From Eledone cirrhosa (Eukaryota), in assembly GCA_964016885.1 (NCBI GenBank), contig OZ024740.1, positions 156,116,001-156,180,000 on the forward strand: DNA of 64,000 nucleotides, written 5' to 3'. The notes under the pieces were generated by a model, which searched no databases, had not been told where the DNA came from, and worked only from the letters and a program-made list of their open reading frames with translations. The position numbers and the translations under genes were made by a program. Shown in pieces: positions 15,396-55,900 of this stretch (position 1 is the first letter of the stretch; each line of letters opens with the position of its first letter).

Positions 15396-15429
<34 letters not shown>

Positions 15430-15508: not shown

Positions 15509-15604
<96 letters not shown>

Positions 15605-15719
15605 ACCAGTATTTTTTTCCCCCTGGTAAAATGGTGTACATTATTCGATTTTTTTCAGTAAGATCGGTTCTCTTAATAGAACATAAAAAATTTTAACAAT
15701 AAAAGGTGTGAAATGATAT

Positions 15720-15760
<41 letters not shown>

Positions 15761-16820: not shown

Positions 16821-16879
<59 letters not shown>

Positions 16880-16948
16880 ATCTTAATAGCCATTTGACAC
16901 ACATCGCTTCTGGCTATTGTCGCAGCATCGAACACCTTACTACTACTA

Positions 16949-16992
<44 letters not shown>

Positions 16993-17462: not shown

Positions 17463-17503
<41 letters not shown>

Positions 17504-20500
17504 GTTAAATGAACCTGATACAAACAAATTATCTCACCTGCATAATGTGCATTTTGAACACTGTACGATACATTTTTATAATGTGAAGGTACCACAGCTA
17601 TATACACATCAGCGTTTGGTACGTTAGCAACGCAGCTGTAATTCACCTCAGAATTGAAATATGCTATATTTTGGGAAATAATGGTGACTTGTGGAATGGA
17701 CGAGAAAGAAAAGTTTCTGCTCCGTTCGGCAATCGATACATTTTGGTAAAGCAATTTGCAAGTTATTTTCACTGCAGAATACAAACATGAAAATATTATA
17801 GATTAGAGAAACAACATTCGGTTGATGCATCATAAGTTTACGTAATTATAGATTAATAATTTCAAATATATGGAATATACCTATATGACCCCAGGAAATG
17901 ATATTAGTAAATTATGTTTAATCGAATTGTTTTAGAATAATATAAATGAGGACACTAATCAATTATCAACAATAATAAATATTTAAAGCTACTAACAACC
18001 CCACCAACTATAACCTAATGAGTACCAACAGAATTGTCACCCGTTTACTGGAACTTTATAACATTATTAAACACATTCCACCCTTCCTTTTACTCTAACC
18101 GAATATATTTCTCAATATTCTCAGTCATTGACTTTAAGAACAACTATAAATACAACGCAACTTCAGATAAAATCTAATTATCTCTGAAGATACATATGTT
18201 AACTTCTATTCGAAATAAATATACCTCTGGAAAATACGTAAAAATAAAATTAACCCCTCTATCTTCTTCGATTTCATGTTGTAATGTATCGCAAGTCGGT
18301 TGGGGTAAACCTCAAATAATTTCTTATCTATGTACCTCTCACTCTATCTACCTACCTATATATAATCGAGAAAAATGATATCTTACCTGGTGATGCCTGT
18401 GTTAAAGTAAGTTCTCCAATTGTTACGTTGGTTAGCTTCCTTATTTTTGGTATTCCGCCTTTTTCAATATCATTCAAATACCATTGGAAAGTGGTTTGTG
18501 GTGGTAATTTGTTCGTATTACAGCTAAATGTTATGTTCTTCATACTATTCATTGTTGTTAACACACCATATAATGAATCATTATAGTCTGTGTATGCGAG
18601 ATATCATAAAAATATTTTAATGTTAATCATAATTTTCAACATTGTAACGTAATAATTGTTTCTACTTTTAGCACGGGGCCAGCAATTATCCCAGTGCATT
18701 ACTGGTACTTTATTTTATCGACCCGGTAAGGATGAAAGGCAAAGTTAACCTCGACGGGATTTGAACTCAGATCATAAAGGGCCGTAACTCTATGCTGCAA
18801 AGCATGGCGTCCGACCCTGTACCATAACTGCCAATCCACAATGATGTATTAATTCTAATATTGTGCAAGTATTAAAAATTAATATTGTGACGAATCGCTT
18901 ACAGAAAATATTATTCGTAAAATCACCATAAATTTTACATTGTTTGTTGTTGTTGCTCTCGCCTTAGTCCGTTTTGAGTTAGTTTACTTATAATCAAATA
19001 TATTCTGTGTCCTTCCGTTTTTTTCCAGATGCAGTGTTTCCAGGACGGCATTCTCGAATATGTTCTATTTTTTAAATTACTTTAGTGAGGCAAGTTTGGT
19101 TGAATAGATTATATCACTCCATCATTACCTCTATTACTCTCCCATAGTTTATATTCTTGTATTGTTTTATTGATTTCAGTCATTACCCCGCGGCCATGCT
19201 GGGGTTTCCCAATCATACTGACCTTAGTAATCACTTTTTCAACTCTGTTACCTATTTTATTGATTTTTAATTTTTATTGAAATTCTCAGAGACGGCACAT
19301 AAACAGAGGCACAAACGTAAACATACACACATACGATGAGCTTCTACAGATTCCATTTGTTTAATTTCACCCATAAGGTATTGGTCATCCCGAGGCTATA
19401 TTACAAGACATTTGCCCAAGATGTCACGCCGTGGGAATGAACCTGAAATCACGTGGTTGCGAAGCAAACTGATTACCTCAATAGTTATTCATGTTTCATT
19501 GCAATTATTTGGATTAATTTCACTCATGGACTGCAGCCATGCAGGTTCAGCACCTTCAATAGTTCAAAGGCTTTATAGTCTACTGTAATGGAACCGTTAC
19601 TCTCGTTTGGTATTTATTTTATTGATGTCAGAGAAATAAGAATTGCAAAGTCATCCGAGTGTAGGCAGAAGCAATCGTGAGGGATACAAATGCGATATAT
19701 TTTTTGTGATTGATGCAGTCATTTTGTTTACTACCTGACGCTAATGAGCACATACAAATGCAGAAAGACAGACACTGTTTAATTTGCCTTGCTTGCTTTG
19801 AGGGTTTAAGTCGGAGGGGCGTCGTCGTGTCTTATGTCCTTGTCATTTAAATCCTGGTAGAGACCACTCCTTTTCATGAATAACCAAAGCCGATTTCTTC
19901 CAGAGAGAGAGAGAGAGATAGATAGATAGAGAGAGAGAGAGGGAAAGGTGGAAAGAAATCGACGCCCAATACTCAACTAGTACTTTTATTACCGACCCAA
20001 AATGATGGGAGGTAAACTTAACCTCTGCGGGATTTGATCCCAGAACACAGAGAACCCGAACAAACATTGCAATGTACTATATTCGATACTGTAACGATTC
20101 TTTCAATTCATGGTTTATACTCTGAATAACAACAGATGTTCATTCAGATAAATTTCAACAGATAATTGAAAGTAAGTAACTATCAATGGCAACAAAGACT
20201 ATGATTTGTTCACTTTAGTGCTTTTAACAGGTTTCAGTCTCTTGCAAGATACGAACCAGACCAACGGTTTGCTCCACGTCCATGTTATTCATGATGATAC
20301 TAACCTGGCGATATTGAAACTAGATATTAGCAACATCAATGTAATCACTACAAAAATGCCTGCAAAAATCGTAGACATGTCTCTTCTATCCTGATTAATT
20401 TATAAAAGAAAAAAAAAATGAATTCATGTAAAAGATACATACCTCCCAGGGAAACTATTTCTTTTATGAGTCCCATTTGGTTTCCATTTACGGCAAAGCA

Positions 20501-23500
20501 TGTAATGTTTGTGACTCCTGATGTTATAGTATTTCCTAATAAATATAGTTATAGATTGGTTTAACCATTTCAATTCTATTAGATTCGAATAGAGTCAAAT
20601 AAACTTACACTTCAAAAAATGAGAAGCAAATGTCATAAAGATATTAGTACAGATTAAAAGAAAAGGTTCTACTTTTTAGTCTTTTGCTTTTTTTAATATC
20701 CAACATCTTTATTTATTCAATATAAAAGAATCTCTTAATGTGATGAAAGGCCATTGACATTATATAAAAATAATAGAGCAGTATCTAATGAAAACAAAAT
20801 ATACTGTTAAATGGAACAGAAAATGAAAAGGAGAAAAAGAAAGAAAGATCAAGCAACCAAAGAAAGGGAGAGGAGCAGGGACTGTCACTACACACCAGTT
20901 TGAGCGGTGCCTCAGCTGTGCTCCGCAAGCGGCCCATCATCTTTCCGACTTTACGGAGGAAATCAGCAGTGCGGGGAACAAGGATGCCAGAGGTCTCGAT
21001 GGAAGCTGGTGCGAAGAAGAAGCGGTTGGTCAACCCCGGTATTTGACTAACCTCGTATCTTTCGTATTGCGGACTGCAGAGTCCAGGTTTGTGGTCGAAG
21101 CGAAGAGGCTGCAGGCGAAGAATTAGTCACAGCTTTTTCTCTCATTACGCAGAGTGGGCAGGTTGATGTAATTGGCTAACACACTTATCACGAAAATAAG
21201 AGATTTGGATTCGATTCCCGCGTATGCTGATTTTACCACTTTTTTATTCTAATCTGGGGTCTTATAAGCCCTGTTATTATCAGATAATTTTGTTTTTATT
21301 TATCTAATTTATTTTCACATCTCGTTTAACTGTTCACCCCCCCCCCTTTGTTTTACATGCGTTATTTCCATACCACACCACTCTCACGCATATACATATA
21401 TTTCTTATAATATACATATATTTCTCATACCACTGAGTCTTACCACCAATGCACGCACACACAACATATACGCTCTAGCGCACATTCAAGACGATTTCAT
21501 TGATTAATTAAAATTCATAAAACATCTAGAAAACCAACAGTCTGGCAGATTAACTTACCTTTATAAAATCCCCTTGCACTGAATGTAGTCACACCCAAAG
21601 TATTTTCCAGAGTTACGTGGACTGTAGCGTTTGATATATTTGCGACGCAGTCGTAATTTAACATAGGAATCACATTAGATACTGATGCATTTAGCTCAAC
21701 ATCTGGAAATTGTTGTAATTCAAAAGTTGTATGCAAACTATCCTGCATATTACCAGAATTTATGGTGCAGTTTACGGGTACTTAATCGAAAATAAAAGAA
21801 AAACAGATTAGAAACATCAGGAGAAAAAGAATGAAAACTTTTAATAGAGAACCGTGACAGAGCTTATCGGCTATCAAAAATATACATTCACTTTTGTATG
21901 TTTTTTTATCTATTACTAGTTTCAGACTATGTTATATTCATCACTTGATTATGGCAGATATCTTATCGAGCATGACAAAATATTTTGTGATATTTAATTT
22001 TCTGAGCGCATATTCTGCATTGTATTAACATAAAAGGTAAATATAACGGTTTGTGCTTTTGAATGATGGCTACTTAAACGTATATCGAGTAACCAGTGAA
22101 ACTATTTATATTTAATAAAAGATATACATAAAATCCTTTGTTATGGCTTAGTCGTTAGGGCACTTGATTAAAAATGCCTCAATATTTGTTCAGGCTTCTG
22201 TCAAGGTCAACTTTGCTTTTCATCCCTTCTAGTTCAATATATATAGTACCATCCATTACTGGAGTCGGTTGTTCTCTTTATTTCTCTGGAAGAAATTCGC
22301 TGTGTTCCGACCTGGTGAGGGATGGACTCTGCCAGATTTAAAATGTCCAAAACACGCCATAATTTTATTGCCGAGTCGTATTCATAAAATATAGAACTCA
22401 GATAGCCTCGATCCTCGGCGAATTTAATAAAATGTTTCGAAAAAAGCATCTAGACATTGCTTTTATATAAATTAACCAGATCTATATTCACATGTCACAT
22501 CATTCAATATATATACAAAGATATTATATAGAAAAAAACATACGTACTTCTATCTCCGGACGTAAATTGATATATATCTTTGACTATAATACTCTCCTGC
22601 GAGCGATTGCTTTGCAATATCTGATTGGTTACCATACCAGTAACGGGTTTTCCAGAAATAAACCACGAATAGTTCAGGTTAGCAATGTTATAATATGTGT
22701 AGCATGTAAAATTTGCACCGCCATTGCCTTCTAACTTCGCTGTTAGTCGTATCATTTGGGAAATAACTGGAAAAAATGGATAAAATACAAATATTCCACA
22801 TAAATAGATGTTTCGGCATCCCACATTTTAACTTTTGACTTTGAATTCACAACTTCCAATAAAAAAACATCAACAGGAACATTAAAAAGCAACACAAAAT
22901 ACAAACTAATCCAATTATTATGATATATTACAAATAATGATGTCTTGCACCATGGCATGTACATTTGTGTGTGTGTATATAGAAAAGAGTTTCATTTCTA
23001 CTCAGAAAATAAATTTTACACTCTATCTGAAGTTATTTACGGCTTTTAACATGCTGGCCTCAATTTCCCCCTCTCCAGAATCTATGTCATATTTAAGTTC
23101 ATTAATTGGTCTCGTGACTGCAACCCCCAAAAGGTTGGTCTTAGCCCATAGATGCATCTCATGTACATTAAAAGATGTGACCGGGTTTAGGAGATCAGCC
23201 AAGTATTCTCTCCCCGTCTCGAGGACGCACCTCACTTCAGAGAGAAGAACCCCAGACAAGTTGTTGACAGCAGGCCTGGAGATGGACTTTTTATTGCAAA
23301 GTTGGTGGATGGTCTGCGACCATACTTTATTTCCAGCTTAACCCCAATGTCCTTCAATGTCTTAACCTTGGACGCCTTTACTGTCTCTGCTACGACACAT
23401 CACGACTGCTTGTACCACGAGTACAAGAAGGAAGACTTATTTCTAATCCAAGCTTTGTAAGCTCCCTTCTTTGATCGGATAGCATTGTTAACTTCCTGAT

Positions 23501-25914
23501 TGGACACGGCGGTGCTGCTGCTAACCACTGCCACATCGAGCCGCTTTCATCCGCAGTATTTAATAGCTGAAGCAGAAATTGCCGAGCTGAACAGTCTCCT
23601 CTCTGTTTCAACGTACTCAATTCTTTCAGGGTGTTCTCTGAATTTGGATGCAATAGTATCCACATATCCAATCATGAAATCTTCATCAGACAACGCTTTC
23701 CTCTTTATTCTGTATGGTGATATGAATTTGTCACAGTTTTAGGTTTTCTTAACTTTAGGTAATTTCGGATTACAGATAACTATATGGTGATCAGTTGACA
23801 GCTCAGCTCTCTCCTAACACGAACATCCAGCACAGAATCGAAGAGCTCAGAGACAATAGAAAAATCACTTACTGATCATTGTCCCCGATTTCTCGAAAAC
23901 CATGAATATTTATAGATGTCTTTGTACTGTAAGAAGATGTTTATAATAGAGAGTTAATTACTAGAATGGAAACCTAATAAGGCCTCTCCATTTGCATTTA
24001 GATCGGGATCGCCGTTCCTTCACATCAATATTTTCGCTGTCAGTTGCTTAGTGTCAGTATGTGCATTGACGTCGCTCATTAGGATATATGACAGAGAACA
24101 AATACCGTTTACACAAGCCACTATAGTTCCATCTGAGAGCAAACTACCGATCCAAGAGATGACTGACGGATGAAGATCGTAAGCGGTTAGTTTTGAGAGG
24201 CGATTCACATGTCAGACACGACCAAAAGCTTAGGTTATGTTGTGGGACAACAACATTGTTTTCAGCAAATTTCTCTAAGTAGGGAGTTCACTGACGTGAC
24301 ATAGAAGAGTAGGTCTTAGGTTGATCAGGTTTTACGGAAAACATGTTGGTAGTCGTTAAGGAAAGAGTGAAACGGGGGAGACGGAAGGAGAGAAAGAAAA
24401 AAATTCAGCTGATAGAGAAATTCATTGATAATTTTATAGTGTATTGTGGATGAATAAACAAACCTACTAGACATTTTGCCAACCTATAGTGTTTTTATGT
24501 TCCAAAGTACATCCGTAGATTCACACTTTGTTTATACTTTTTACATTTGTTGCATTCAACAGTGAACAAGGCACGGTAAGCTGACCAGTTTTTGAGATAA
24601 ACAATTCTTGAAATACACCTTTACAGTCCCTTCCTAGTAATTTGGGTGAGTAGTGCTCTAATTACATAATTGTTTCTACTGTTGGCACAAGGCCAGCAAT
24701 TATCCCAGTGTATTACTGGTACTTTATTTATCGACCCCGTAAGGATGAAAGGCAAAGTTAACCTCGACGGGATTTGAACTCAGATCATAAAGGGCCGTAA
24801 CTCTATGCTGCAAAGCATGGCGTCCGACCCTGTACCATAACTGCCAATCCACAATGATGTATTAATTCTAATATTGTGCAAGTATTAAAAATTAATATTG
24901 TGACGAATCGCTTACAGAAAATATTATTCGTAAAATCACCATAAATTTTACATTGTTTGTTGTTGTTGCTCTCGCCTTAGTCCGTTTTGAGTTAGTTTAC
25001 TTATAATCAAATATATTCTGTGTCCTTCCGTTTTTTTCCAGATGCAGTGTTTCCAGGACGGCATTCTCGAATATGTTCTATTTTTTAAATTACTTTAGTG
25101 AGGCAAGTTTGGTTGAATAGATTATATCACTCCATCATTACCTCTATTACTCTCCCATAGTTTATATTCTTGTATTGTTTTATTGATTTCAGTCATTACC
25201 CCGCGGCCATGCTGGGGTTTCCCAATCATACTGACCTTAGTAATCACTTTTTCAACTCTGTTACCTATTTTATTGATTTTTTAATTTTTATTGAACTTCT
25301 CAGAGACGGCACATAAACAGAGGCACAAACGTAAACATACACACATACGATGAGCTTCTACAGATTCCTTTTGTTTAATTTCACCCATAAGGTATTGGTC
25401 ATCCCGAGGCTATATTACAAGACATTTGCCCAAGATGTCACGCCGTGGGAATGAACCTGAAATCACGTGGTTGCGAAGCAAACTCCTTACCTCAATAGTT
25501 ATTCATGTTTCATTGCAATTATTTGGATTAATTTCTCTCATGGACTGCAGCCATGCAGGTTCAGCACCTTCAATAGTTCAAAGGCTTTATAGTCTACTGT
25601 AATGGAACCGTTACTCTCGTTTGGTATTTATTTTATTGATGTCAGAGAAATAAGAATTGCAAAGTCATCCGAGTGTAGGCAGAAGCAATCGTGAGGGATA
25701 CAAATGCGATATATTTTTTGTGATTGATGCAGTCATTTTGTTTACTACCTGACGCTAATGAGCACATACAAATGCGGAAAGACAGACACTGTTTAATTTG
25801 CCTTGCTTGCTTTGAGAGTTTAAGTCGGAGGGGCGTCGTCGTGTCTTATGTCCTTGTCATTTAAAACCTGGTAGAGACCACTCCTTTTCATGAATAACCA
25901 AAGCCGATTTCTTC

Positions 25915-25949
<35 letters not shown>

Positions 25950-28900
25950 CGGAAAGGTGGAAAGAAATCGACGCCCAATACTCAACTAGTACTTTTATTA
26001 CCGACCCAAAATGATGGGAGGTAAACTTAACCTCTGCGGCATTTGATCCCAGAACACAGAGAACCCGAACAAACATTGCAATGTACTATATTCGATACTG
26101 TAACGATTCTTTCAATTCATGGTTTATACTCTGAATAACAACAGATGTTCATTCAGATAAATTTCAACAGATAATTGAAAGTAGTAACTATCCATGGCAA
26201 CAAAGACTATGATTTGTTCACTTTAGTGCTTTTAACAGGTTTCAGTCTCTTGCAAGATACGAACCAGACCAACGGTTTGCTCCACGTCCATGTTATTCAT
26301 GATGATACTAACCTGGCGATATTGAAACTAGATATTAGCAACATCAATGTAATCACTACAAAAATGCCTGCAAAAATCGTAGACATGTCTCTTCTATCCT
26401 GATTAATTTATAAAAGAAAACAAAAATGAATTCATGTAAAAGATACATACCTCCCGGGGAAACTATTTCTTTTATGAGTCCCATTTGGTCTCCATTTACC
26501 GCAAAGCATGTAATCTTTGTGACTCCTGATGTGTTACTATTTCCTAATAAATATAGTTATAGATTGGTTTAACCATTTCAATTCTATTAGATTCGAATAG
26601 AGTTAAATAAACTTACACTTCATAAAATGAGAAGCAAATGTCATAAAGATATTAGTACAGATTAAAAGAAAAGGTTCTACTTTTTAGTCTTTTGCTTTTT
26701 TTAATATCCAACATCTTTATTTATTCAATATAAAAAAAATCTCTTCATGTGATAAAAGGCCATTGACATTATATAAAAATAATAGAGCAGTATCTAATGA
26801 AAACAAAATATACTGTTAAATGGAACAGAAAATGAAAAGGAGAAAAAGAAAGAAAGATCAAGCAACCAAAGAAAGGGAGAGGAGCAGGGACTGTCACTAC
26901 ACACCAGTTTGAGCGGTGCCTCAGCTGTGCTCCGCAAGCGGCCCATCATCTTTCCGACTTTACGGAGGAAATCAGCAGTGCGGGGAACAAGGATGCCAGA
27001 GGTCTCGATGGAAGCTGGTGCGAAGAAGAAGCGGTTGGTCAACCCCGGTATTTGACTAACCTCCACTCTTTCGTATTGCGGACTGCAGAGTCCAGGTTTG
27101 TGGTCGAAGCGAAGAGGCTGCAGGCGAAGAATTAGTCACAGCTTTTTCTCTCATTACGCAGAGTGGGCAGGTTGATGTAATTGGCTAACACACTTATCAC
27201 GAAAATAAGAGATTTGGATTCGATTCCCGCGTATGCTGATTTTACCACTTTTTTATTCTAATCTGGGGTCTTATAAGCCCTGTTATTATCAGATAATTTT
27301 GTTTTTATTTATCTAATTTATTTTCACATCTCGTTTAACTGTTCACCCCCCCCCCTTTGTTTTACTTGCGTTATTTCCATACCACACCACTCTCACGCAT
27401 ATACATATATTTCTTATAATATACATATATTTCTCATACGACTGAGTCTTACCACCAATGCACGCACACACAACATATACGCTCTAGCGCACATTCAAGA
27501 CGATTTCATTGATTAATTAAAATTCATAAAACATCTAGAAAACCAACAGTCTGGCAGATTAACTTACCTTTATAAAATCCCCTTGCACTGAATGTAGTCA
27601 CACCCAAAGTATTTTCCAGAGTTACGTGGACTGTAGCGTTTGATATATTTGCGACGCAGTCGTAATTTAACATAGGAATCACATTAGATACTGATGCATT
27701 TAGCTCAACATCTGGAAATTGTTGTAATTCAAAAGTTGTATGCAAACTATCCTGCATATTACCAGAATTTATGGTGCAGTTTACGGGTACTTAATCGAAA
27801 ATAAAAGAAAAACAGATTAGAAACATCAGGAGAAAAAGAATGAAAACTTTTAATAGAGAACCGTGACAGAGCTTATCGGCTATCAAAAATATACATTCAC
27901 TTTTGTATGTTTTTTTATCTATTACTAGTTTCAGACTATGTTATATTCATCACTTGATTATGGCAGATATCTTATCGAGCATGACAAAATATTTTGTGAT
28001 ATTTAATTTTCTGAGCGCATATTCTGCATTGTATTAACATAAAAGGTAAATATAACGGTTTGTGCTTTTGAATGATGGCTACTTAAACGTATATCGAGTA
28101 ACCAGTGAAACTATTTATATTTAATAAAAGATATACATAAAATCCTTTGTTATGGCTTAGTCGTTAGGGCACTTGATTAAAAATGCCTCAATATTTGTTC
28201 AGGCTTCTGTCAAGGTCAACTTTGCTTTTCATCCCTTCTAATTCAATATATATAGTACCATCCATTACTGGAGTCGGTTGTTCTCTTTATTTCTCTGGAA
28301 GAAATTCGCTGTGTTCCGACCTGGTGAGGGATGGACTCTGCCAGATTTAAAATGTCCAAAACACGCCATAATTTTATTGCCGAGTCGTATTCATAAAATA
28401 TAGAACTCAGATAGCCTCGATCCTCGGCGAATTTAATAAAATGTTTCGAAAAAAGCATCTAGACATTGCTTTTATATAAATTAACCAGATCTATATTCAC
28501 ATGTCACATCATTCAATATATATACAAAGATATTATATAGAAAAAAACATACGTACTTCTATCTCCGGACGTAAATTGATATATATCTTTGACTATAATA
28601 CTCTCCTGCGAGCGATTGCTTTGCAATATCTGATTGGTTACCATACCAGTAACGGGTTTTCCAGAAATAAACCACGAATAGTTCAGGTTAGCAATGTTAT
28701 AATATGTGTAGCATGTAAAATTTGCACCGCCATTGCCTTCTAACTCCGCTGTTAGTCGTATCATTTGGGAAATAACTGGAAAAAATGGATAAAATACAAA
28801 TATTCCACATAAATAGATGTTTCGGCATCCCACATTTTAACTTTTGACTTTGAATTCACAACTTCCAATAAAAAAACATCAACAGGAACATTAAAAAGCA

Positions 28901-31900
28901 ACACAAAATACAAACTAATCCAATTATTATGATATATTACAAATAATGATGTCTTGCACCATGGCATGTACATTTGTGTGTGTGTATATAGAAAAGAGTT
29001 TCATTTCTACTCAGAAAATAAATTTTACACTCTATCTGAAGTTATTTACGGCTTTTAACATGCTGGCCTCAATTTCCCCCTCTCCAGAATCTATGTCATA
29101 TTTAAGTTCATTAATTGGTCTCGTGACTGCAACCCCCAAAAGGTTGGTCTTAGCCCATAGATGCATCTCATGTACATTAAAAGATGTGACCGGGTTTAGG
29201 AGATCAGCCAAGTATTCTCTCCCCGTCTCGAGGACGCACCTCACTTCAGAGAGAAGAACCCCAGACAAGTTGTTGACAGCAGGCCTGGAGATGGACTTTT
29301 TATTGCAAAGTTGGTAGATGGTCTGCGACCATACTTTATTTCCAGCTTAACCCCAATGTCCTTCAATGTCTTAACCTTGGACGCCTTTACTGTCTCTGCT
29401 ACGACACATCACGACTGCTTGTACCACGAGTACAAGAAGGAAGACTTATTTCTAATCCAAGCTTTGTAAGCTCCCTTCTTTGATCGGATAGCATTGTTAA
29501 CTTCCTGATTGGACACGGCGGTGCTGCTGCTAACCACTGCCACATCGAGCCGCTTTCATCCGCAGTATTTAATAGCTGAAGCAGAAATTGCCGAGCTGAA
29601 CAGTCTCCTCTCTGTTTCAACGTACTCAATTCTTTCAGGGTGTTCTCTGAATTTGGATGCAATAGTATCCACATATCCAATCATGAAATCTTCATCAGAC
29701 AACGCTTTCCTCTTTATTCTGTATGGTGATATGAACTTGTCACAGTTTTAGGTTTTCTTAACTTTAGGTAATTTCGGATTACAGATAACTATATGGTGAT
29801 CAGTTGACAGCTCAGCTCTCTCCTAACACGAACATCCAGCACAGAATCGAAGAGCTCAGAGACAATAGAAAAATCACTTACTGATCATTGTCCCCGATTT
29901 CTCGAAAACCATGAATATTTATAGATGTCTTTGTACTGCAAGAAGATGTTTATAATAGAGAGTTAATTACTAGAATGGAAACCTAATAAGGCCTCTCCAT
30001 TTGCATTTAGATCGGGATCGCCGTTCCTTCACATCAATATTTTCGCTGTCAGTTGCTTAGTGTCAGTATGTGCATTGACGTCGCTCATTAGGATATATGA
30101 CAGAGAACAAATACCGTTTACACAAGCCACTATAGTTCCATCTGAGAGCAAACTACCGATCCAAGAGATGACTGACGGATGAAGATCGTAAGCGGTTAGT
30201 TTTGAGAGGCGATTCACATGTCAGACACGACCAAAAGCTTAGGTTATGTTGTGGGACAACAACATTGTTTTCAGCAAATTTCTCTAAGTAGGGAGTTCAC
30301 TGACGTGACATAGAAGAGTAGGTCTTAGGTTGATCAGGTTTTACGGAAAACATGTTGGTAGTCGTTAAGGAAAGAGTGAAACGGGGGAGACGGAAGGAGA
30401 GAAAGAAAAAAATTCAGCTGATAGAGAAATTCATTGATAATTTTATAGTGTATTGTGGATGAATAAACAAACCTACTAGACATTTTGCCAACCTATAGTG
30501 TTTTTATGTTCCAAAGTACATCCGTAGATTCACACTTTGTTTATACTTTTTACATTTGTTGCATTCAACAGTGAACAAGGCACGGTAAGCTGACCAGTTT
30601 TTGAGATAAACAATTCTTGAAATACACCTTTACAGTCCCTTCCTAGTAATTTGGGTGAGTAGTGCTCTAATTACATAATTGTTTCTACTGTTGGCACAAG
30701 GCCAGCAATTATCCCAGTGTATTACTGGTACTTTATTTATCGACCCCGTAAGGATGAAAGGCAAAGTTAACCTCGACGGGATTTGAACTCAGATCATAAA
30801 GGGCCGTAACTCTATGCTGCAAAGCATGGCGTCCGACCCTGTACCATAACTGCCAATCCACAATGATGTATTAATTCTAATATTGTGCAAGTATTAAAAA
30901 TTAATATTGTGACGAATCGCTTACAGAAAATATTATTCGTAAAATCACCATAAATTTTACATTGTTTGTTGTTGCTCTCGCCTTAGTCCGTTTTGAGTTA
31001 GTTTACTTATAATCAAATATATTCTGTGTCCTTCCGTTTTTTTCCAGATGCAGTGTTTCCAGGACGGCATTCTCGAATATGTTCTATTTTTTAAATTACT
31101 TTAGTGAGGCCAGTTTGGTTGAATAGATTATATCACTCCATCATTACCTCTATTACTCTCCCATAGTTTATATTCTTGTATTGTTTTATTGATTTCAGTC
31201 ATTACCCCGCGGCCATGCTGGGGTTTCCCAATCATACTGACCTTAGTAATCACTTTTTCAACTCTGTTACCTATTTTATTGATTTTTTAATTTTTATTGA
31301 ACTTCTCAGAGACGGCACATAAACAGAGGCACAAACGTAAACATACACACATACGATGAGCTTCTACAGATTCCTTTTGTTTAATTTCACCCATAAGGTA
31401 TTGGTCATCCCGAGGCTATATTACAAGACATTTGCCCAAGATGTCACGCCGTGGGAATGAACCTGAAATCACGTGGTTGCGAAGCAAACTCCTTACCTCA
31501 ATAGTTATTCATGTTTCATTGCAATTATTTGGATTAATTTCTCTCATGGACTGCAGCCATGCAGGTTCAGCACCTTCAATAGTTCAAAGGCTTTATAGTC
31601 TACTGTAATGGAACCGTTACTCTCGTTTGGTATTTATTTTATTGATGTCAGAGAAATAAGAATTGCAAAGTCATCCGAGTGTAGGCAGAAGCAATCGTGA
31701 GGGATACAAATGCGATATATTTTTTGTGATTGATGCAGTCATTTTGTTTACTACCTGACGCTAATGAGCACATACAAATGCGGAAAGACAGACACTGTTT
31801 AATTTGCCTTGCTTGCTTTGAGAGTTTAAGTCGGAGGGGCGTCGTCGTGTCTTATGTCCTTGTCATTTAAAACCTGGTAGAGACCACTCCTTTTCATGAA

Positions 31901-31920
31901 TAACCAAAGCCGATTTCTTC

Positions 31921-31952
<32 letters not shown>

Positions 31953-34900: not shown

Positions 34901-37900
34901 CAAAATACAAACTAATACAATTATTATGATATATTACAAATAATGATGTCTTGCACCATGGCATGTACATTTGTGTGTGTGTGTGTGTATATAGAAAAGA
35001 GTTTCATTTCTACTCAGAAAATAAATTTTACACTCTATCTGAAGTTATTTACGGCTTTTAACATGCTGGCCTCAATTTCCCCCTCTCCAGAATCCATGTC
35101 ATATTTAAGTTCATTAATTGGTCTCGTGACTGCAACCCCCAAAAGGTTGGTCTTAGCCCATAGATGCATCTCATGTACATTAAAAGATGTGACCGGGTTT
35201 AGGAGATCAGCAAAGTATTCTCTCCCCCTCTCGAGGACGCACCTCACTTCAGAGAGAAGAACCCCAGACAAGTTGTTGACAGCAGGCCTGGAGATGGACT
35301 TTTTATTGCAAAGTTGGTGGATGGTCTGCGACCATACTTTATTTCCAGCTTAACCCCAATGTCCTTCAATGTCTTAACCTTGGACGCCTTTACTGTCTCT
35401 GCTACGACACATCACGACTGCTTGTACCACGAGTACAAGAAGGAAGACTTATTTCTAATCCAAGCTTTGTAAGCTCCCTTCTTTGATCGGATAGCATTGT
35501 TAACTTCCTGATTGGACACGGCGGTGCTGCTGCTAACCACTGCCACATCGAGCCGCTTTCATCCGCTGTATTTAATAGCTGAAGCAGAAATTGCCGAGCT
35601 GAACAGTCTCCACTCTGTTTCAACGTACTCAATTCTTTCAGGGTGTTCTCTGAATTTGGATGCAATAGTATCCACATATCCAATCATGAAATCTTCATCA
35701 GACAACGCTTTCCTCTTTATTCTGTATGGTGATATGAACTTGTCACAGTTTTAGGTTTTCTTAACTTTAGGTAATTTCGGATTACAGATAACTATATGGT
35801 GATCAGTTGACAGCTCAGCTCTCTCCTAACACGAACATCCAGCACAGAATCGAAGAGCTCAGAGACAATAGAAAAATCACTTACTGATCATTGTCCCCGA
35901 TTTCTCGAAAACCATGAATATTTATAGATGTCTTTGTACTGCAAGAAGATGTTTATAATAGAGAGTTAATTACTAGAATGGAAACCTAATAAGGCCTCTC
36001 CATTTGCATTTAGATCGGGATCGCCGTTCCTTCACATCAATATTTTCGCTGTCAGTTGCTTAGTGTCAGTATGTGCATTGACGTCGCTCATTAGGATATA
36101 TGACAGAGAACAAATACCGTTTACACAAGCCACTATAGTTCCATCTGAGAGCAAACTACCGATCCAAGAGATGACTGACGGATGAAGATCGTAAGCGGTT
36201 AGTTTTGAGAGGCGATTCACATGTCAGACACGACCAAAAGCTTAGGTTATGTTGTGGGACAACAACATTGTTTTCAGCAAATTTCTCTAAGTAGGGAGTT
36301 CACTGACGTGACATAGAAGAGTAGGTCTTAGGTTGATCAGGTTTTACGGAAAACATGTTGGTAGTCGTTAAGGAAAGAGTGAAACGGGGGAGACGGAAGG
36401 AGAGAAAGAAAAAAATTCAGCTGATAGAGAAATTCATTGATAATTTTATAGTGTATTGTGGATGAATAAACAAACCTACTAGACATTTTGCCAACCTATA
36501 GTGTTTTTATGTTCCAAAGTACATCCGTAGATTCACACTTTGTTTATACTTTTTACATTTGTTGCATTCAACAGTGAACAAGGCACGGTAAGCTGACCAG
36601 TTTTTGAGATAAACAATTCTTGAAATACACCTTTACAGTCCCTTCCTAGTAATTTGGGTGAGTAGTGCTCTAATTACATAATTGTTTCTACTGTTGGCAC
36701 AAGGCCAGCAATTATCCCAGTGTATTACTGGTACTTTATTTATCGACCCCGTAAGGATGAAAGGCAAAGTTAACCTCGACGGGATTTGAACTCAGATCAT
36801 AAAGGGCCGTAACTCTATGCTGCAAAGCATGGCGTCCGACCCTGTACCATAACTGCCAATCCACAATGATGTATTAATTCTAATATTGTGCAAGTATTAA
36901 AAATTAATATTGTGACGAATCGCTTACAGAAAATATTATTCGTAAAATCACCATAAATTTTACATTGTTTGTTGTTGTTGCTCTCGCCTTAGTCCGTTTT
37001 GAGTTAGTTTACTTATAATCAAATATATTCTGTGTCCTTCCGTTTTTTTCCAGATGCAGTGTTTCCAGGACGGCATTCTCGAATATGTTCTATTTTTTAA
37101 ATTACTTTAGTGAGGCAAGTTTGGTTGAATAGATTATATCACTCCATCATTACCTCTATTACTCTCCCATAGTTTATATTCTTGTATTGTTTTATTGATT
37201 TCAGTCATTACCCCGCGGCCATGCTGGGGTTTCCCAATCATACTGACCTTAGTAATCACTTTTTCAACTCTGTTACCTATTTTATTGATTTTTTAATTTT
37301 TATTGAACTTCTCAGAGACGGCACATAAACAGAGGCACAAACGTAAACATACACACATACGATGAGCTTCTACAGATTCCTTTTGTTTAATTTCACCCAT
37401 AAGGTATTGGTCATCCCGAGGCTATATTACAAGACATTTGCCCAAGATGTCACGCCGTGGGAATGAACCTGAAATCACGTGGTTGCGAAGCAAACTCCTT
37501 ACCTCAATAGTTATTCATGTTTCATTGCAATTATTTGGATTAATTTCTCTCATGGACTGCAGCCATGCAGGTTCAGCACCTTCAATAGTTCAAAGGCTTT
37601 ATAGTCTACTGTAATGGAACCGTTACTCTCGTTTGGTATTTATTTTATTGATGTCAGAGAAAAAAGAATTGCAAAGTCATCCGAGTGTAGGCAGAAGCAA
37701 TCGTGAGGGATACAAATGCGATATATTTTTTGTGATTGATGCAGTCATTTTGTTTACTACCTGACGCTAATGAGCACATACAAATGCGGAAAGACAGACA
37801 CTGTTTAATTTGCCTTGCTTGCTTTGAGAGTTTAAGTCGGAGGGGCGTCGTCGTGTCTTATGTCCTTGTCATTTAAAACCTGGTAGAGACCACTCCTTTT

Positions 37901-37926
37901 CATGAATAACCAAAGCCGATTTCTTC

Positions 37927-37958
<32 letters not shown>

Positions 37959-40900: not shown

Positions 40901-43900
40901 GCAACACAAAATACAAACTAATACAATTATTATGATATATTACAAATAATGATGTCTTGCACCATGGCATGTACATTTGTGTGTGTGTGTGTGTATATAG
41001 AAAAGAGTTTCATTTCTACTCAGAAAATAAATTTTACACTCTATCTGAAGTTATTTACGGCTTTTAACATGCTGGCCTCAATTTCCCCCTCTCCAGAATC
41101 CATGTCATATTTAAGTTCATTAATTGGTCTCGTGACTGCAACCCCCAAAAGGTTGGTCTTAGCCCATAGATGCATCTCATGTACATTAAAAGATGTGACC
41201 GGGTTTAGGAGATCAGCAAAGTATTCTCTCCCCCTCTCGAGGACGCACCTCACTTCAGAGAGAAGAACCCCAGACAAGTTGTTGACAGCAGGCCTGGAGA
41301 TGGACTTTTTATTGCAAAGTTGGTGGATGGTCTGCGACCATACTTTATTTCCAGCTTAACCCCAATGTCCTTCAATGTCTTAACCTTGGACGCCTTTACT
41401 GTCTCTGCTACGACACATCACGACTGCTTGTACCACGAGTACAAGAAGGAAGACTTATTTCTAATCCAAGCTTTGTAAGCTCCCTTCTTTGATCGGATAG
41501 CATTGTTAACTTCCTGATTGGACACGGCGGTGCTGCTGCTAACCACTGCCACATCGAGCCGCTTTCATCCGCAGTATTTAATAGCTGAAGCAGAAATTGC
41601 CGAGCTGAACAGTCTCCTCTCTGTTTCAACGTACTCAATTCTTTCAGGGTGTTCTCTGAATTTGGATGCAATAGTATCCACATATCCAATCATGAAATCT
41701 TCATCAGACAACGCTTTCCTCTTTATTCTGTATGGTGATATGAACTTGTCACAGTTTTAGGTTTTCTTAACTTTAGGTAATTTCGGATTACAGATAACTA
41801 TATGGTGATCAGTTGACAGCTCAGCTCTCTCCTAACACGAACATCCAGCACAGAATCGAAGAGCTCAGAGACAATAGAAAAATCACTTACTGATCATTGT
41901 CCCCGATTTCTCGAAAACCATGAATATTTATAGATGTCTTTGTACTGCAAGAAGATGTTTATAATAGAGAGTTAATTACTAGAATGGAAACCTAATAAGG
42001 CCTCTCCATTTGCATTTAGATCGGGATCGCCGTTCCTTCACATCAATATTTTCGCTGTCAGTTGCTTAGTGTCAGTATGTGCATTGACGTCGCTCATTAG
42101 GATATATGACAGAGAACAAATACCGTTTACACAAGCCACTATAGTTCCATCTGAGAGCAAACTACCGATCCAAGAGATGACTGACGGATGAAGATCGTAA
42201 GCGGTTAGTTTTGAGAGGCGATTCACATGTCAGACACGACCAAAAGCTTAGGTTATGTTGTGGGACAACAACATTGTTTTCAGCAAATTTCTCTAAGTAG
42301 GGAGTTCACTGACGTGACATAGAAGAGTAGGTCTTAGGTTGATCAGGTTTTACGGAAAACATGTTGGTAGTCGTTAAGGAAAGAGTGAAACGGGGGAGAC
42401 GGAAGGAGAGAAAGAAAAAAATTCAGCTGATAGAGAAATTCATTGATAATTTTATAGTGTATTGTGGATGAATAAACAAACCTACTAGACATTTTGCCAA
42501 CCTATAGTGTTTTTATGTTCCAAAGTACATCCGTAGATTCACACTTTGTTTATACTTTTTACATTTGTTGCATTCAACAGTGAACAAGGCACGGTAAGCT
42601 GACCAGTTTTTGAGATAAACAATTCTTGAAATACACCTTTACAGTCCCTTCCTAGTAATTTGGGTGAGTAGTGCTCTAATTACATAATTGTTTCTACTGT
42701 TGGCACAAGGCCAGCAATTATCCCAGTGTATTACTGGTACTTTATTTATCGACCCCGTAAGGATGAAAGGCAAAGTTAACCTCGACGGGATTTGAACTCA
42801 GATCATAAAGGGCCGTAACTCTATGCTGCAAAGCATGGCGTCCGACCCTGTACCATAACTGCCAATCCACAATGATGTATTAATTCTAATATTGTGCAAG
42901 TATTAAAAATTAATATTGTGACGAATCGCTTACAGAAAATATTATTCGTAAAATCACCATAAATTTTACATTGTTTGTTGTTGTTGCTCTCGCCTTAGTC
43001 CGTTTTGAGTTAGTTTACTTATAATCAAATATATTCTGTGTCCTTCCGTTTTTTTCCAGATGCAGTGTTTCCAGGACGGCATTCTCGAATATGTTCTATT
43101 TTTTAAATTACTTTAGTGAGGCAAGTTTGGTTGAATAGATTATATCACTCCATCATTACCTCTATTACTCTCCCATAGTTTATATTCTTGTATTGTTTTA
43201 TTGATTTCAGTCATTACCCCGCGGCCATGCTGGGGTTTCCCAATCATACTGACCTTAGTAATCACTTTTTCAACTCTGTTACCTATTTTATTGATTTTTT
43301 AATTTTTATTGAACTTCTCAGAGACGGCACATAAACAGAGGCACAAACGTAAACATACACACATACGATGAGCTTCTACAGATTCCTTTTGTTTAATTTC
43401 ACCCATAAGGTATTGGTCATCCCGAGGCTATATTACAAGACATTTGCCCAAGATGTCACGCCGTGGGAATGAACCTGAAATCACGTGGTTGCGAAGCAAA
43501 CTCCTTACCTCAATAGTTATTCATGTTTCATTGCAATTATTTGGATTAATTTCTCTCATGGACTGCAGCCATGCAGGTTCAGCACCTTCAATAGTTCAAA
43601 GGCTTTATAGTCTACTGTAATGGAACCGTTACTCTCGTTTGGTATTTATTTTATTGATGTCAGAGAAATAAGAATTGCAAAGTCATCCGAGTGTAGGCAG
43701 AAGCAATCGTGAGGGATACAAATGCGATATATTTTTTGTGATTGATGCAGTCATTTTGTTTACTACCTGACGCTAATGAGCACATACAAATGCGGAAAGA
43801 CAGACACTGTTTAATTTGCCTTGCTTGCTTTGAGAGTTTAAGTCGGAGGGGCGTCGTCGTGTCTTATGTCCTTGTCATTTAAAACCTGGTAGAGACCACT

Positions 43901-46900: not shown

Positions 46901-49900
46901 AAAAAGCAACACAAAATACAAACTAATACAATTATTATGATATATTACAAATAATGATGTCTTGCACCATGGCATGTACATTTGTGTGTGTGTGTGTGTA
47001 TATAGAAAAGAGTTTCATTTCTACTCAGAAAATAAATTTTACACTCTATCTGAAGTTATTTACGGCTTTTAACATGCTGGCCTCAATTTCCCCCTCTCCA
47101 GAATCCATGTCATATTTAAGTTCATTAATTGGTCTCGTGACTGCAACCCCCAAAAGGTTGGTCTTAGCCCATAGATGCATCTCATGTACATTAAAAGATG
47201 TGACCGGGTTTAGGAGATCAGCAAAGTATTCTCTCCCCCTCTCGAGGACGCACCTCACTTCAGAGAGAAGAACCCCAGACAAGTTGTTGACAGCAGGCCT
47301 GGAGATGGACTTTTTATTGCAAAGTTGGTGGATGGTCTGCGACCATACTTTATTTCCAGCTTAACCCCAATGTCCTTCAATGTCTTAACCTTGGACGCCT
47401 TTACTGTCTCTGCTACGACACATCACGACTGCTTGTACCACGAGTACAAGAAGGAAGACTTATTTCTAATCCAAGCTTTGTAAGCTCCCTTCTTTGATCG
47501 GATAGCATTGTTAACTTCCTGATTGGACACGGCGGTGCTGCTGCTAACCACTGCCACATCGAGCCGCTTTCATCCGCTGTATTTAATAGCTGAAGCAGAA
47601 ATTGCCGAGCTGAACAGTCTCCACTCTGTTTCAACGTACTCAATTCTTTCAGGGTGTTCTCTGAATTTGGATGCAATAGTATCCACATATCCAATCATGA
47701 AATCTTCATCAGACAACGCTTTCCTCTTTATTCTGTATGGTGATATGAACTTGTCACAGTTTTAGGTTTTCTTAACTTTAGGTAATTTCGGATTACAGAT
47801 AACTATATGGTGATCAGTTGACAGCTCAGCTCTCTCCTAACACGAACATCCAGCACAGAATCGAAGAGCTCAGAGACAATAGAAAAATCACTTACTGATC
47901 ATTGTCCCCGATTTCTCGAAAACCATGAATATTTATAGATGTCTTTGTACTGCAAGAAGATGTTTATAATAGAGAGTTAATTACTAGAATGGAAACCTAA
48001 TAAGGCCTCTCCATTTGCATTTAGATCGGGATCGCCGTTCCTTCACATCAATATTTTCGCTGTCAGTTGCTTAGTGTCAGTATGTGCATTGACGTCGCTC
48101 ATTAGGATATATGACAGAGAACAAATACCGTTTACACAAGCCACTATAGTTCCATCTGAGAGCAAACTACCGATCCAAGAGATGACTGACGGATGAAGAT
48201 CGTAAGCGGTTAGTTTTGAGAGGCGATTCACATGTCAGACACGACCAAAAGCTTAGGTTATGTTGTGGGACAACAACATTGTTTTCAGCAAATTTCTCTA
48301 AGTAGGGAGTTCACTGACGTGACATAGAAGAGTAGGTCTTAGGTTGATCAGGTTTTACGGAAAACATGTTGGTAGTCGTTAAGGAAAGAGTGAAACGGGG
48401 GAGACGGAAGGAGAGAAAGAAAAAAATTCAGCTGATAGAGAAATTCATTGATAATTTTATAGTGTATTGTGGATGAATAAACAAACCTACTAGACATTTT
48501 GCCAACCTATAGTGTTTTTATGTTCCAAAGTACATCCGTAGATTCACACTTTGTTTATACTTTTTACATTTGTTGCATTCAACAGTGAACAAGGCACGGT
48601 AAGCTGACCAGTTTTTGAGATAAACAATTCTTGAAATACACCTTTACAGTCCCTTCCTAGTAATTTGGGTGAGTAGTGCTCTAATTACATAATTGTTTCT
48701 ACTGTTGGCACAAGGCCAGCAATTATCCCAGTGTATTACTGGTACTTTATTTATCGACCCCGTAAGGATGAAAGGCAAAGTTAACCTCGACGGGATTTGA
48801 ACTCAGATCATAAAGGGCCGTAACTCTATGCTGCAAAGCATGGCGTCCGACCCTGTACCATAACTGCCAATCCACAATGATGTATTAATTCTAATATTGT
48901 GCAAGTATTAAAAATTAATATTGTGACGAATCGCTTACAGAAAATATTATTCGTAAAATCACCATAAATTTTACATTGTTTGTTGTTGTTGCTCTCGCCT
49001 TAGTCCGTTTTGAGTTAGTTTACTTATAATCAAATATATTCTGTGTCCTTCCGTTTTTTTCCAGATGCAGTGTTTCCAGGACGGCATTCTCGAATATGTT
49101 CTATTTTTTAAATTACTTTAGTGAGGCAAGTTTGGTTGAATAGATTATATCACTCCATCATTACCTCTATTACTCTCCCATAGTTTATATTCTTGTATTG
49201 TTTTATTGATTTCAGTCATTACCCCGCGGCCATGCTGGGGTTTCCCAATCATACTGACCTTAGTAATCACTTTTTCAACTCTGTTACCTATTTTATTGAT
49301 TTTTTAATTTTTATTGAACTTCTCAGAGACGGCACATAAACAGAGGCACAAACGTAAACATACACACATACGATGAGCTTCTACAGATTCCTTTTGTTTA
49401 ATTTCACCCATAAGGTATTGGTCATCCCGAGGCTATATTACAAGACATTTGCCCAAGATGTCACGCCGTGGGAATGAACCTGAAATCACGTGGTTGCGAA
49501 GCAAACTCCTTACCTCAATAGTTATTCATGTTTCATTGCAATTATTTGGATTAATTTCTCTCATGGACTGCAGCCATGCAGGTTCAGCACCTTCAATAGT
49601 TCAAAGGCTTTATAGTCTACTGTAATGGAACCGTTACTCTCGTTTGGTATTTATTTTATTGATGTCAGAGAAATAAGAATTGCAAAGTCATCCGAGTGTA
49701 GGCAGAAGCAATCGTGAGGGATACAAATGCGATATATTTTTTGTGATTGATGCAGTCATTTTGTTTACTACCTGACGCTAATGAGCACATACAAATGCGG
49801 AAAGACAGACACTGTTTAATTTGCCTTGCTTGCTTTGAGAGTTTAAGTCGGAGGGGCGTCGTCGTGTCTTATGTCCTTGTCATTTAAAACCTGGTAGAGA

Positions 49901-52900: not shown

Positions 52901-55900
52901 CATTAAAAAGCAACACAAAATACAAACTAATACAATTATTATGATATATTACAAATAATGATGTCTTGCACCATGGCATGTACATTTGTGTGTGTGTGTG
53001 TGTATATAGAAAAGAGTTTCATTTCTACTCAGAAAATAAATTTTACACTCTATCTGAAGTTATTTACGGCTTTTAACATGCTGGCCTCAATTTCCCCCTC
53101 TCCAGAATCCATGTCATATTTAAGTTCATTAATTGGTCTCGTGACTGCAACCCCCAAAAGGTTGGTCTTAGCCCATAGATGCATCTCATGTACATTAAAA
53201 GATGTGACCGGGTTTAGGAGATCAGCAAAGTATTCTCTCCCCCTCTCGAGGACGCACCTCACTTCAGAGAGAAGAACCCCAGACAAGTTGTTGACAGCAG
53301 GCCTGGAGATGGACTTTTTATTGCAAAGTTGGTGGATGGTCTGCGACCATACTTTATTTCCAGCTTAACCCCAATGTCCTTCAATGTCTTAACCTTGGAC
53401 GCCTTTACTGTCTCTGCTACGACACATCACGACTGCTTGTACCACGAGTACAAGAAGGAAGACTTATTTCTAATCCAAGCTTTGTAAGCTCCCTTCTTTG
53501 ATCGGATAGCATTGTTAACTTCCTGATTGGACACGGCGGTGCTGCTGCTAACCACTGCCACATCGAGCCGCTTTCATCCGCAGTATTTAATAGCTGAAGC
53601 AGAAATTGCCGAGCTGAACAGTCTCCACTCTGTTTCAACGTACTCAATTCTTTCAGGGTGTTCTCTGAATTTGGATGCAATAGTATCCACATATCCAATC
53701 ATGAAATCTTCATCAGACAACGCTTTCCTCTTTATTCTGTATGGTGATATGAACTTGTCACAGTTTTAGGTTTTCTTAACTTTAGGTAATTTCGGATTAC
53801 AGATAACTATATGGTGATCAGTTGACAGCTCAGCTCTCTCCTAACACGAACATCCAGCACAGAATCGAAGAGCTCAGAGACAATAGAAAAATCACTTACT
53901 GATCATTGTCCCCGATTTCTCGAAAACCATGAATATTTATAGATGTCTTTGTACTGCAAGAAGATGTTTATAATAGAGAGTTAATTACTAGAATGGAAAC
54001 CTAATAAGGCCTCTCCATTTGCATTTAGATCGGGATCGCCGTTCCTTCACATCAATATTTTCGCTGTCAGTTGCTTAGTGTCAGTATGTGCATTGACGTC
54101 GCTCATTAGGATATATGACAGAGAACAAATACCGTTTACACAAGCCACTATAGTTCCTTCTGAGAGCAAACTACCGACCCAAGAGATGACTGACGGATGA
54201 AGATCGTAAGCGGTTAGTTTTGAGAGGCGATTCACATGTCAGACACGACCAAAAGCTTAGGTTATGTTGTGGGACAACAACATTGTTTTCAGCAAATTTC
54301 TCTAAGTAGGGAGTTCACTGACGTGACATAGAAGAGTAGGTCTTAGGTTGATCAGGTTTTACGGAAAACATGTTGGTAGTCGTTAAGGATAGAGTGAAAC
54401 GGGGGAGACGGAAGGAGAGAAAGAAAAAAATTCAGCTGATAGAGAAATTCATTGATAATTTTATAGTGTATTGTGGATGAATAAACAAACCTACTAGACT
54501 TTTTGCCAACCTATAGTGTTTTTATGTTCCAAAGTACATCCGTAGATTCACACTTTGTTTATACTTTTTACATTTGTTGCATTCAACAGTGAACAAGGCA
54601 CGGTAAGCTGACCAGTTTTTGAGATAAACAATTCTTGAAATACACCTTTACAGTCGCTTCCTAGTAATTTGGGTGAGTAGTGCTCTAATTAAATAATTGT
54701 TTATACTTTTGGCACAAGGCCAGCAATTACCCAGTACATTACTGGTACTTTATTTTATCGACCCCGTATGGATGAAAGGCAAAGTTAACCTCGGCGGGAT
54801 TTGAACTCAGATCATAAAGGGACGTAACTATGCTGGAAAGCATGTCCGAGCCTCTACCCATACTGCCAATTCACCGCCCTCATAATTAAATAATTGTTTC
54901 TACGTTAGGCACAAGGCCAGCAATCACCCAGTGCATTACTGGTACTTTATTAATTAAATAATGATATTCAGACACAGGTAGTGTTGCCCATTTCTTTTAA
55001 CTGTCTAGACAAAAAAAAAAGACAAACGTTCAGGTATCTCCCCCACTGCCGCCTGATGTGCAAGTTTGTGGTTGTACATTTCCAACTTTTCAAATCTGAA
55101 TATATCGCAACACATTTATCGCCATGGACTTTGTAAAACTAGCATAGATAATACAAGATATTTTGGTTTGACGGTTATTAGCATTGATACTGTGATGTTA
55201 AATTACTGATGGCAATAAGATACAATGTACTACGGTGTTTCAAAGTAACTGAACGTTGCAGCAATTATAGGGATAAGCACTTGGATAACACGAGTAGCAT
55301 TCTCTGTGTATTAGCTACCATAGTCGTGTGTCTAACCATTCTTCAAATATCAGTGACCCTCTAAAGTATCAGCTATCATGAACCAGTGACAAGAAAACAT
55401 CAATTTTGTTTTCATAATTTTTTAGTCAATTAAAGTACCCCACAAAACAGTATGGCTTTAAATTAGGAGTTTTCTATCTCCAATATGGATGTTACCACTT
55501 TGTTACCTCTGTGCCTTACGCTTATAATGCTTGACATCCGTTGATCTACTGTTTATTTTAATATTATAAACTGTGGTTTAATGTTGAACTAATTTACTCC
55601 TTTACTGTGAAATTGTGCCGCATAGTGCTTATAGCATTAATCACACGACAGTGAGACCATACAATGGTGAGTTCGATCCCACGTTGTGCTCTTGAGCAAA
55701 CTACCTCATTTTATTTTGCTCCAGTTCATTCAGCTGAAAAGAACTACTAGAAACTGTTAGGACAATCTTGCGACATATTAGCGTCCCAAACCAACGAAGA
55801 ATCCTTAACAAATGAAAACGACGGGGCACGCTCCAGTTTCCAAACAGCCAGTGTCGGCATGTAAAAATGAATGTAAAACTCGTGATGATGGTGGTGACGA

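Follow-up and report, generated by a model that had tools for sequence, protein, structure and literature searches.

The 64,000-nucleotide stretch analyzed here (the window; Eledone cirrhosa assembly GCA_964016885.1, contig OZ024740.1, positions 156,116,001 to 156,180,000 of the forward strand) contains a tandem array of six 6.0-kb units flanked by seven ~188-bp copies of a short interspersed element (SINE), all in one orientation, within a predicted gene for a long surface protein with immunoglobulin (Ig) domains. The array with both outer SINEs occupies 18652..54880; its units start at 18652, 24666, 30675, 36678, 42684, and 48689, are 6014, 6009, 6003, 6006, 6005, and 6004 bp long, respectively, and are followed by the seventh SINE at 54693. 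Self-BLAST of the window returned a single tandem array spanning 18652-54874 with a period near 6.0 kb, and three marker strings, none of which occurred on the opposite strand, gave the same layout: AGTGCTCTAATTA was found six times, each time preceding one of the SINEs S2 to S7 (numbered from the left), while CCTCGACGGG and CCACAATGATGTATT were each found six times, at S1 to S6. Self-BLAST, unit starts, and marker counts therefore confirm the preliminary description of this locus, in which seven same-orientation SINEs bracket six units. Its further claim that each outer SINE has one unique flank also held, in that the flanks of S1 and S7 are unrelated to unit sequence; homology running on beyond the outer SINEs, which would have spoken against the proposed boundaries, did not appear in BLASTN comparisons (word 7, E<=0.01) of the 3 kb left of S1 with unit 6 or of the 3 kb right of S7 with unit 1, each of which gave zero matches. 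The chance that both breakpoints fall in register within same-orientation copies of one family is ~7e-5, a rough figure from a uniform-breakpoint approximation.

The close similarity of some units (units 3 and 5 differ by 1 substitution plus indels, and units 3-5 by 1-5 substitutions) raises the question of whether part of the copy number was created by the assembly. We consider such an artefact very unlikely, given that units 1, 2, 3-5, and 6 carry distinct, structured variants and that the unit 1, unit 2, and unit 3-6 types are separated by 34-71 substitutions. Because the variants are structured in this way, at least four copies must be real.

Each unit carries three minus-strand exons. In unit 1, exon A (22548..22766; 219 nt) encodes the first part of one Ig domain, exon B (21559..21780; 222 nt) the end of that domain and the start of a second, and exon C (20443..20535; 93 nt, or 96 nt in units 3-6) the end of the second. 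The remaining copies lie at 28557-28775, 34561-34779, 40567-40785, 46572-46790, and 52576-52794 for exon A, at 27568-27789, 33576-33797, 39582-39803, 45587-45808, and 51591-51812 for exon B, and at 26451-26543, 32456-32551, 38462-38557, 44464-44559, and 50469-50564 for exon C. A profile built from two octopod relatives alone (described below) recognized all three exons, at 23.4, 27.1, and 11.6 bits, respectively, and for each of them none of 500 shuffles scored as high. Beyond the left end of the array, on the same strand, lie two single-copy exons of the next older module, A' (18387..18587; 48 bits; Pfam Ig_3 with E 4e-4, under the curated cut-off) and B' (17538..17771; 88 bits; <=62% identity to the O. 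sinensis relative). When the array exons were joined with A' and B', all 20 exons had AG/GT ends and lengths divisible by three, and they formed 1216 codons in one frame with no stop, every exon being of phase 1-1. The cassette proposed in the preliminary description is thus an in-frame coding set of three phase-1 exons, open in all six units. The same description treated its frame neutrality as luck, a view we do not share: since all exons are phase 1-1, any intron-to-intron duplication in this gene would remain in frame. The informative point is instead that the cassette is exactly one ancient two-Ig module, of ~180 residues in three exons, which was also duplicated in a relative.

The SINE sense strand is also the minus strand. 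The left-boundary parent, S1 (18652..18839), is intronic and has no clear target-site duplication (TSD); the right-boundary parent, S7 (54693..54880), has A- and B-box matches and a TSD-like flank pair. In gene orientation, S1 and S7 precede a splice acceptor by 64 bp (18588-18651) and 32 bp (54661-54692), respectively, that of exon A' in the case of S1. A 5'-truncated copy of the same family (54890..54951, minus strand) directly adjoins S7, so that the two stand as a tandem pair in one AT-rich target. The family appears to be of tRNA type and has an AT-rich tail; the B box of RNA polymerase III was present in 6 of 6 copies examined and a strict A box in 1 of 6, ARAGORN and Rfam gave no match, and the head folded no better than shuffled sequence (z -0.37). 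Three more full-length copies, ~91-94% identical, lie outside the array. An 8-nt TSD was found at a copy at 14.0 kb, and no clear one was found at the copies at 48 and 61615; with its short dispersed copies, AT-rich tail, and TSDs the element is a SINE. It may belong to one of the named octopus SINE families OK, OR1, and OR2 (Ohshima and Okada 1994). Every unit also contains two older SINE relatives, away from the switch points described below.

The five internal SINEs, S2 (24666..24852), S3 (30675..30861), S4 (36678..36864), S5 (42684..42870), and S6 (48689..48875), all on the minus strand, are identical to one another in their bodies and combine the two parents. Their tail-side flank comes from S7 and brings along one of the two halves of its TSD-like pair (approximately TAATTA(T)GAG, a reading that the tail of the adjoining truncated copy partly confounds), and they have the S1 state at every site from alignment column 79 on, as well as at a derived 1-base insertion at column 39; the flank on the far side is of S1 type. 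S1 and S7 themselves share 90.7% identity and match perfectly over at most 28 bp in a row; the identity is comparable to that of other pairs of the family (90.4-93.6%), and this divergence, together with their unrelated outer flanks, indicates that they inserted independently. TSDs of their own, which would have marked the internal SINEs as separate insertions, were absent from the two of the five that were examined, S2 and S6 (best flank match 6 nt). Boundaries, chimeric flanks, and the split TSD thus support the proposal that two independent same-orientation insertions exchanged to found the array, and the junction as read from these sequences points to one SINE-to-SINE exchange as the founding event.

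The chimerism claimed for the internal SINEs stands as to the S7-type flank and the S1-type body and flank, with the amendment that the S7 part is carried by the flank and not by the body. Internal copies and S7 agree against S1 at 4 sites, and there S7 shows the state typical of the family, from which S1 departs; the contribution of S7 is consequently proven by the flank, and the position of the switch is soft within the tail-side 80 bp. Alignment of the seven SINEs, suggested in the preliminary description as a way to locate the crossover, gave as its best interval a 12-bp tract of identity near the tail, with that same softness (columns 27-38, or 24691..24702 as found in S2). Over 17 grouped sites this interval required 2 conflicts, compared with 3 for the neighboring intervals and for columns 75-79 and 4 for the extreme tail.

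Several properties of the junction weigh against a simple founding crossover. No S7-specific base occurs within the internal SINE bodies, and the crossover could lie anywhere in the tail-side ~80 bp. The internal SINEs share 4 changes absent from both parents (3 in the body and 1 in the flank), and the first 76 bp of the junction (18652-18727 and the matching 76 bp of S2-S6) need 6 later changes, including the 2 conflicts, where ~1 is expected (Poisson p 2e-4 to 7e-4); the following 537 bp contain no change private to unit 1 (p 7e-4). A single clean crossover does not explain this cluster of changes together with the change-free stretch that adjoins it. The cluster could be explained by error-prone repair of the junction, by an old array edge spared by conversion, or by allelic differences. 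The preliminary description regarded non-allelic homologous recombination (NAHR) as established, and it is not: the threshold for classical NAHR in mammals, as quoted in PMC9675761, is >~100 bp of perfect identity at the exchange, as against a longest run of 28 bp and a best tract of 12 bp here. Because the parents are only ~91% identical, classical NAHR is indistinguishable from microhomology-based repair, and human events with short homology have been argued to proceed mostly via routes resembling single-strand annealing, microhomology-mediated break-induced replication, or microhomology-mediated end joining (PMC9675761).

The founding junction may have been made by error-prone template switching or end joining at SINE-tail microhomology, or patched afterwards from a third family copy, with the later history unchanged. 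Such an origin would account for the clustering of junction-private changes within 76 bp, it suits parents of 90.7% identity with no perfect run above 28 bp, and it has precedent in human Alu events, which have a median microhomology of ~16 bp and have for the most part been ascribed to non-NAHR routes (PMC9675761, PMC6071635). The cluster could also represent old divergence at an array edge beyond the reach of conversion or allelic differences between two parent chromosomes, and one sequence cannot tell these two from error-prone repair. We regard the error-prone origin as a serious possibility that falls somewhat short of probable.

The subsequent growth of the array took a different course from its founding. 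Unit 1 differs from the other units by 46-71 substitutions, unit 2 from units 3-6 by 34-41, and units 3-5 among themselves by 1-5 (counted without gaps but with the AG microsatellite). Unit 2 has a mosaic structure, unit-3-like in its left part and unit-1-like from about 27.44-27.71 kb on; the switch in ancestry maps to 27440..27706 (alignment columns 2788-3054), outside any junction SINE. With 36 microsatellite columns left out, the 62 informative sites of unit 2 formed 11 runs, and none of 100,000 permutations gave as few; in columns 2801-4600, 25 of 27 events unite units 1 and 2 against units 3-6. Unit 6 has six private changes, all within its last 550 bp. The later exchange points are about 2.8-3 kb away from the nearest junction, within unit sequence that is unique, and the unit-to-unit exchanges had more than ~100 bp of perfect identity available to them.

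These observations bear on whether each gain of a copy was a new SINE-to-SINE crossover. The presence of a SINE at every unit junction fits that scheme; independent S1 x S7 exchanges, however, predict varied switch points without shared private changes, and what was found was five of five internal copies identical with 4 shared private changes, along with later switch points in unique sequence. We therefore consider repeated fresh crossovers highly improbable. Five identical internal SINEs with shared private changes imply that the junction was made once and then copied. The SINE-mediated amplification of the preliminary description consequently holds for the founding duplication and fails for later growth, given internal SINEs that stem from one junction and switches in unique sequence. 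From the established behavior of unequal crossover and conversion, we infer that SINE homology founded the array and that 6-kb unit homology drove its growth.

The relatives of the module were found with a profile of exon B, which among 1.84 billion representative proteins had three matches: the O. sinensis protein LOC115210917 (XP_029635561.1; P0001), an Argonauta hians protein (GAB1606681.1; P0003), and a fish AHNAK repeat protein (P0002), which was rejected as spurious since it has no match to the module. The only credible relatives are thus two octopod proteins, both built from this module. P0001 has eight modules of ~181 residues, of which three are mutually 88-96% identical, so that this relative also expanded recently and independently. 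P0003 has three modules followed by HRM, GAIN, GPS, and 7tm_2 domains, all above curated cut-offs. The end of P0001 aligns with P0003 as far as the start of the HRM region, and P0001 is probably a partial model of an adhesion G protein-coupled receptor (GPCR); both ends of its record are abrupt, and it breaks off at the point at which P0003 enters its HRM domain. Four P0001 modules match the single-copy module of the window at 49-51% identity. It is through the profile that exons A and A' are judged homologous, as BLASTP between the two directly gave no significant match (E 0.14); searches with exon A among longer proteins and with exon B' among proteins of similar length returned no homologue.

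An AlphaFold model of a P0001 module consisted of two beta-sandwiches (pLDDT 71.6), and its top PDB matches, Ig and fibronectin type III (FN3) tandems, included NCAM Ig5-FN1 and CD22 Ig domains. The model represents the O. sinensis module rather than that of the window and is of moderate quality, the folding alignment having misplaced several exon ends. The B- and F-strand Cys residues, C-strand Trp, and beta-sandwich of an Ig domain are present, with the second domain lacking the Trp and the fold taken from the homologous module; the amplified exons alone gave no Pfam Ig match. The gene most likely encodes a long octopod Ig-domain surface protein, an adhesion GPCR, an assignment drawn from P0001 and P0003, and we expect its 7TM end to lie beyond the left end of the window. 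The part of the predicted ectodomain within the window, as read from open reading frames (ORFs), would comprise twelve amplified Ig domains plus older ones.

Comparisons between units gave a weak hint of diversifying selection on the exons. Substitutions affect 76 of the 6028 columns, and 16 of these are among the 537 exonic columns (odds ratio 2.8, p 0.0009), or 14 of 42 when changes are counted as events in the comparable region (p 0.02); of the 16 exon substitutions, 15 alter the amino acid. The excess is due to exon C (7 events in 93 bp vs 10 in 1000 bp of flank); exons A and B were not enriched relative to their flanks (p 0.36 and 1.0). The comparison of nonsynonymous with synonymous change was not significant (p 0.11), and nonsynonymous sites were faster than neighboring introns (3.6% vs 1.3%, p 0.002). 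Three changes create or remove N-glycosylation sequons, and 5 of 13 changed codons fall, by eye, in BC or FG loops of the model. All of these are post hoc tests, and a paralogue acting as donor in conversion would leave the same pattern.

The coding interpretation has evidence on the opposite side as well: the amplified module is only 20-25% identical to P0001 modules, the protein of the window was absent from the protein-sequence searches made, its start exon, exon C', and HRM, GAIN, and 7TM exons were not found in the window, and comparison of the units shows nothing that suggests purifying selection. Should the gene, or at least the array, be a pseudogene that amplified neutrally, then the missing start exon and database record, the lack of a synonymous excess, the heavy load of transposable elements (TEs) downstream of exon B', where C' was not found, and the in-frame stop of a further exon, X, in all six units would be readily understood. 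Against this, open frames and canonical splice sites are maintained in all five distinct exon types (about 324 codons), the only exonic indel among units is 3 nt, and nonsynonymous sites outpace introns, a difference in rate that neutrality would not lead one to expect. On balance we find a pseudogene unlikely.

Exon X (24484..24633, minus strand; 150 nt between AG and GT) is a probable dead B-type exon with a copy in every unit, the last at 54511-54660. It has an in-frame TGA in six of six units, its acceptor is 32 bp from the SINE tail, and it resembles the module weakly (1 of 500 protein and 5 of 500 DNA shuffles scored as high); insertion of S7 may have disabled it. A dead A-type exon suspected by eye near 55.3 kb was dismissed (342 of 500 DNA shuffles as good), as was a candidate for exon C' near 8.6 kb (0.8 bits against the module profile). 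Open minus-strand stretches at 57129-57263 and 57784-57952 have strong splice-site scores and may be upstream exons of this gene; they scored no better than 388 and 75 of 500 shuffles, respectively, against the module profile and had no Pfam match, and the second also had no usable Atlas match. Five ORFs inside the unit had no Pfam match. Each unit also repeats a GC-richer stretch (about 23100-24330 in unit 1), four ORFs of which likewise had no Pfam match and which resembles a decayed RTE-type long interspersed element (LINE) fragment.

The surroundings of the array are rich in repeats. A 2.5-kb, almost pure AT microsatellite array with GC near 0 (389-2872) is followed by a broken plus-strand LINE (2949-6195) with endonuclease and reverse transcriptase matches that ends ahead of a (TA)32 run, and by several Penelope-like fragments (7500-14050) with weak GIY-YIG matches at 8835-9275 (plus) and 13507-14040 (minus); an ORF at 11806-12552, similar in look to these fragments, gave no GIY-YIG match. 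Exon C' was not found in the region following exon B', which the LINE and Penelope-like fragments fill. An inverted repeat pair (14914-15793 and 16556-17472; 900 bp, 92% identical, with ~120-bp subrepeats inside and about 760 bp enclosed), which stops 65 bp short of exon B', has the look of a foldback or non-autonomous DNA element. At the right end, 58000-64000 (minus strand) holds two decayed LINE copies, about 70-76% identical, with reverse transcriptase and endonuclease matches, and between them lies a SINE copy (61615-61799).

The history that we favor, and consider likely as a whole, would begin with an ancestral gene built from three-exon two-Ig modules, in which one tRNA-type SINE family landed twice, as independent insertions that share an orientation and lie one module apart. 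A single short-homology exchange near the SINE 3' tails would then have produced a tandem duplication with one chimeric SINE, whereupon the 6-kb direct repeats could mispair in any part of the unit. Unequal crossover and gene conversion, to which the mosaic units and identical junctions point, would have raised the number of units to six and copied the lone junction five times, each unit adding two intact Ig domains and lengthening the outer arm of the receptor. A much bolder extension, which we offer as speculation and think improbable, is an octopod family of adhesion GPCRs with an accordion-like Ig ectodomain, in which SINE pairs recurrently seed arrays, copy number varies between individuals, positive selection includes shifts of N-glycan sites, and phase-1 exons with a stop-bearing exon allow receptors of graded length or secreted fragments, serving variable recognition in skin, sucker, nerve, or immune cells.

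The locus shares with P0001 and P0003 the two-Ig module of ~180 residues and differs from them in that its amplified module is of a diverged type and that the HRM-GAIN-7TM end of P0003 was not seen in the window. For an octopus-specific expansion of adhesion GPCRs, group 3, Ritschard et al. (2019, PMC6408891) reported that genes are clustered in tandem and have been under positive selection; the main text of that article mentions LRR and Death domains and does not contain the word 'immunoglobulin', whereas the gene described here carries Ig modules. A literature search, which covered few subscription papers or supplements, turned up nothing on cephalopod exon arrays seeded by SINEs or on the present gene family. 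The locus points to a barely annotated octopod family of Ig-module receptors with recurrent module expansion, and since SINEs account for 11.6% of the genome in O. vulgaris (PMC13282606), such seeding may commonly lengthen octopod receptor ectodomains. It also offers an unusually legible start of a protein-domain repeat, with parent SINEs, chimeric junction, and later exchange points all preserved.

Macrosatellites of the LPA kringle IV-2 type likewise have a roughly 5-6 kb unit of whole-domain exons whose copy number is altered by unequal exchange; here the domain is a different one and the founding breakpoint can still be read as a chimeric SINE. The mechanism is already known from human Alu repeats, and this locus is a new instance of it. 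As in TE-mediated events of the Alu/Alu type, the breakpoints lie in register in same-family, same-orientation elements, the junction element is full-length and chimeric, has flanks that do not match, and lacks its own TSD, and the parents are independent with unrelated outer flanks. Intragenic exon duplications of this type also arise from an intronic same-orientation pair around exons and leave a chimeric junction (Song et al. 2018, PMC6071635), but those are mostly single and often pathogenic, whereas this array grew on as its copies diverged. The TE-flanked multi-copy copy-number variants of Balachandran et al. (2022, PMC9675761), where the median Alu microhomology is 16 bp and Fig. 4 presents a 6-kb AluS-flanked multi-copy event, show the same combination of same-orientation repeats, one chimeric junction element, short microhomology, and later copy gain; unlike them, the E. 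cirrhosa array was built on an invertebrate SINE of ~188 bp, has six copies, and repeats a whole protein module within a gene.

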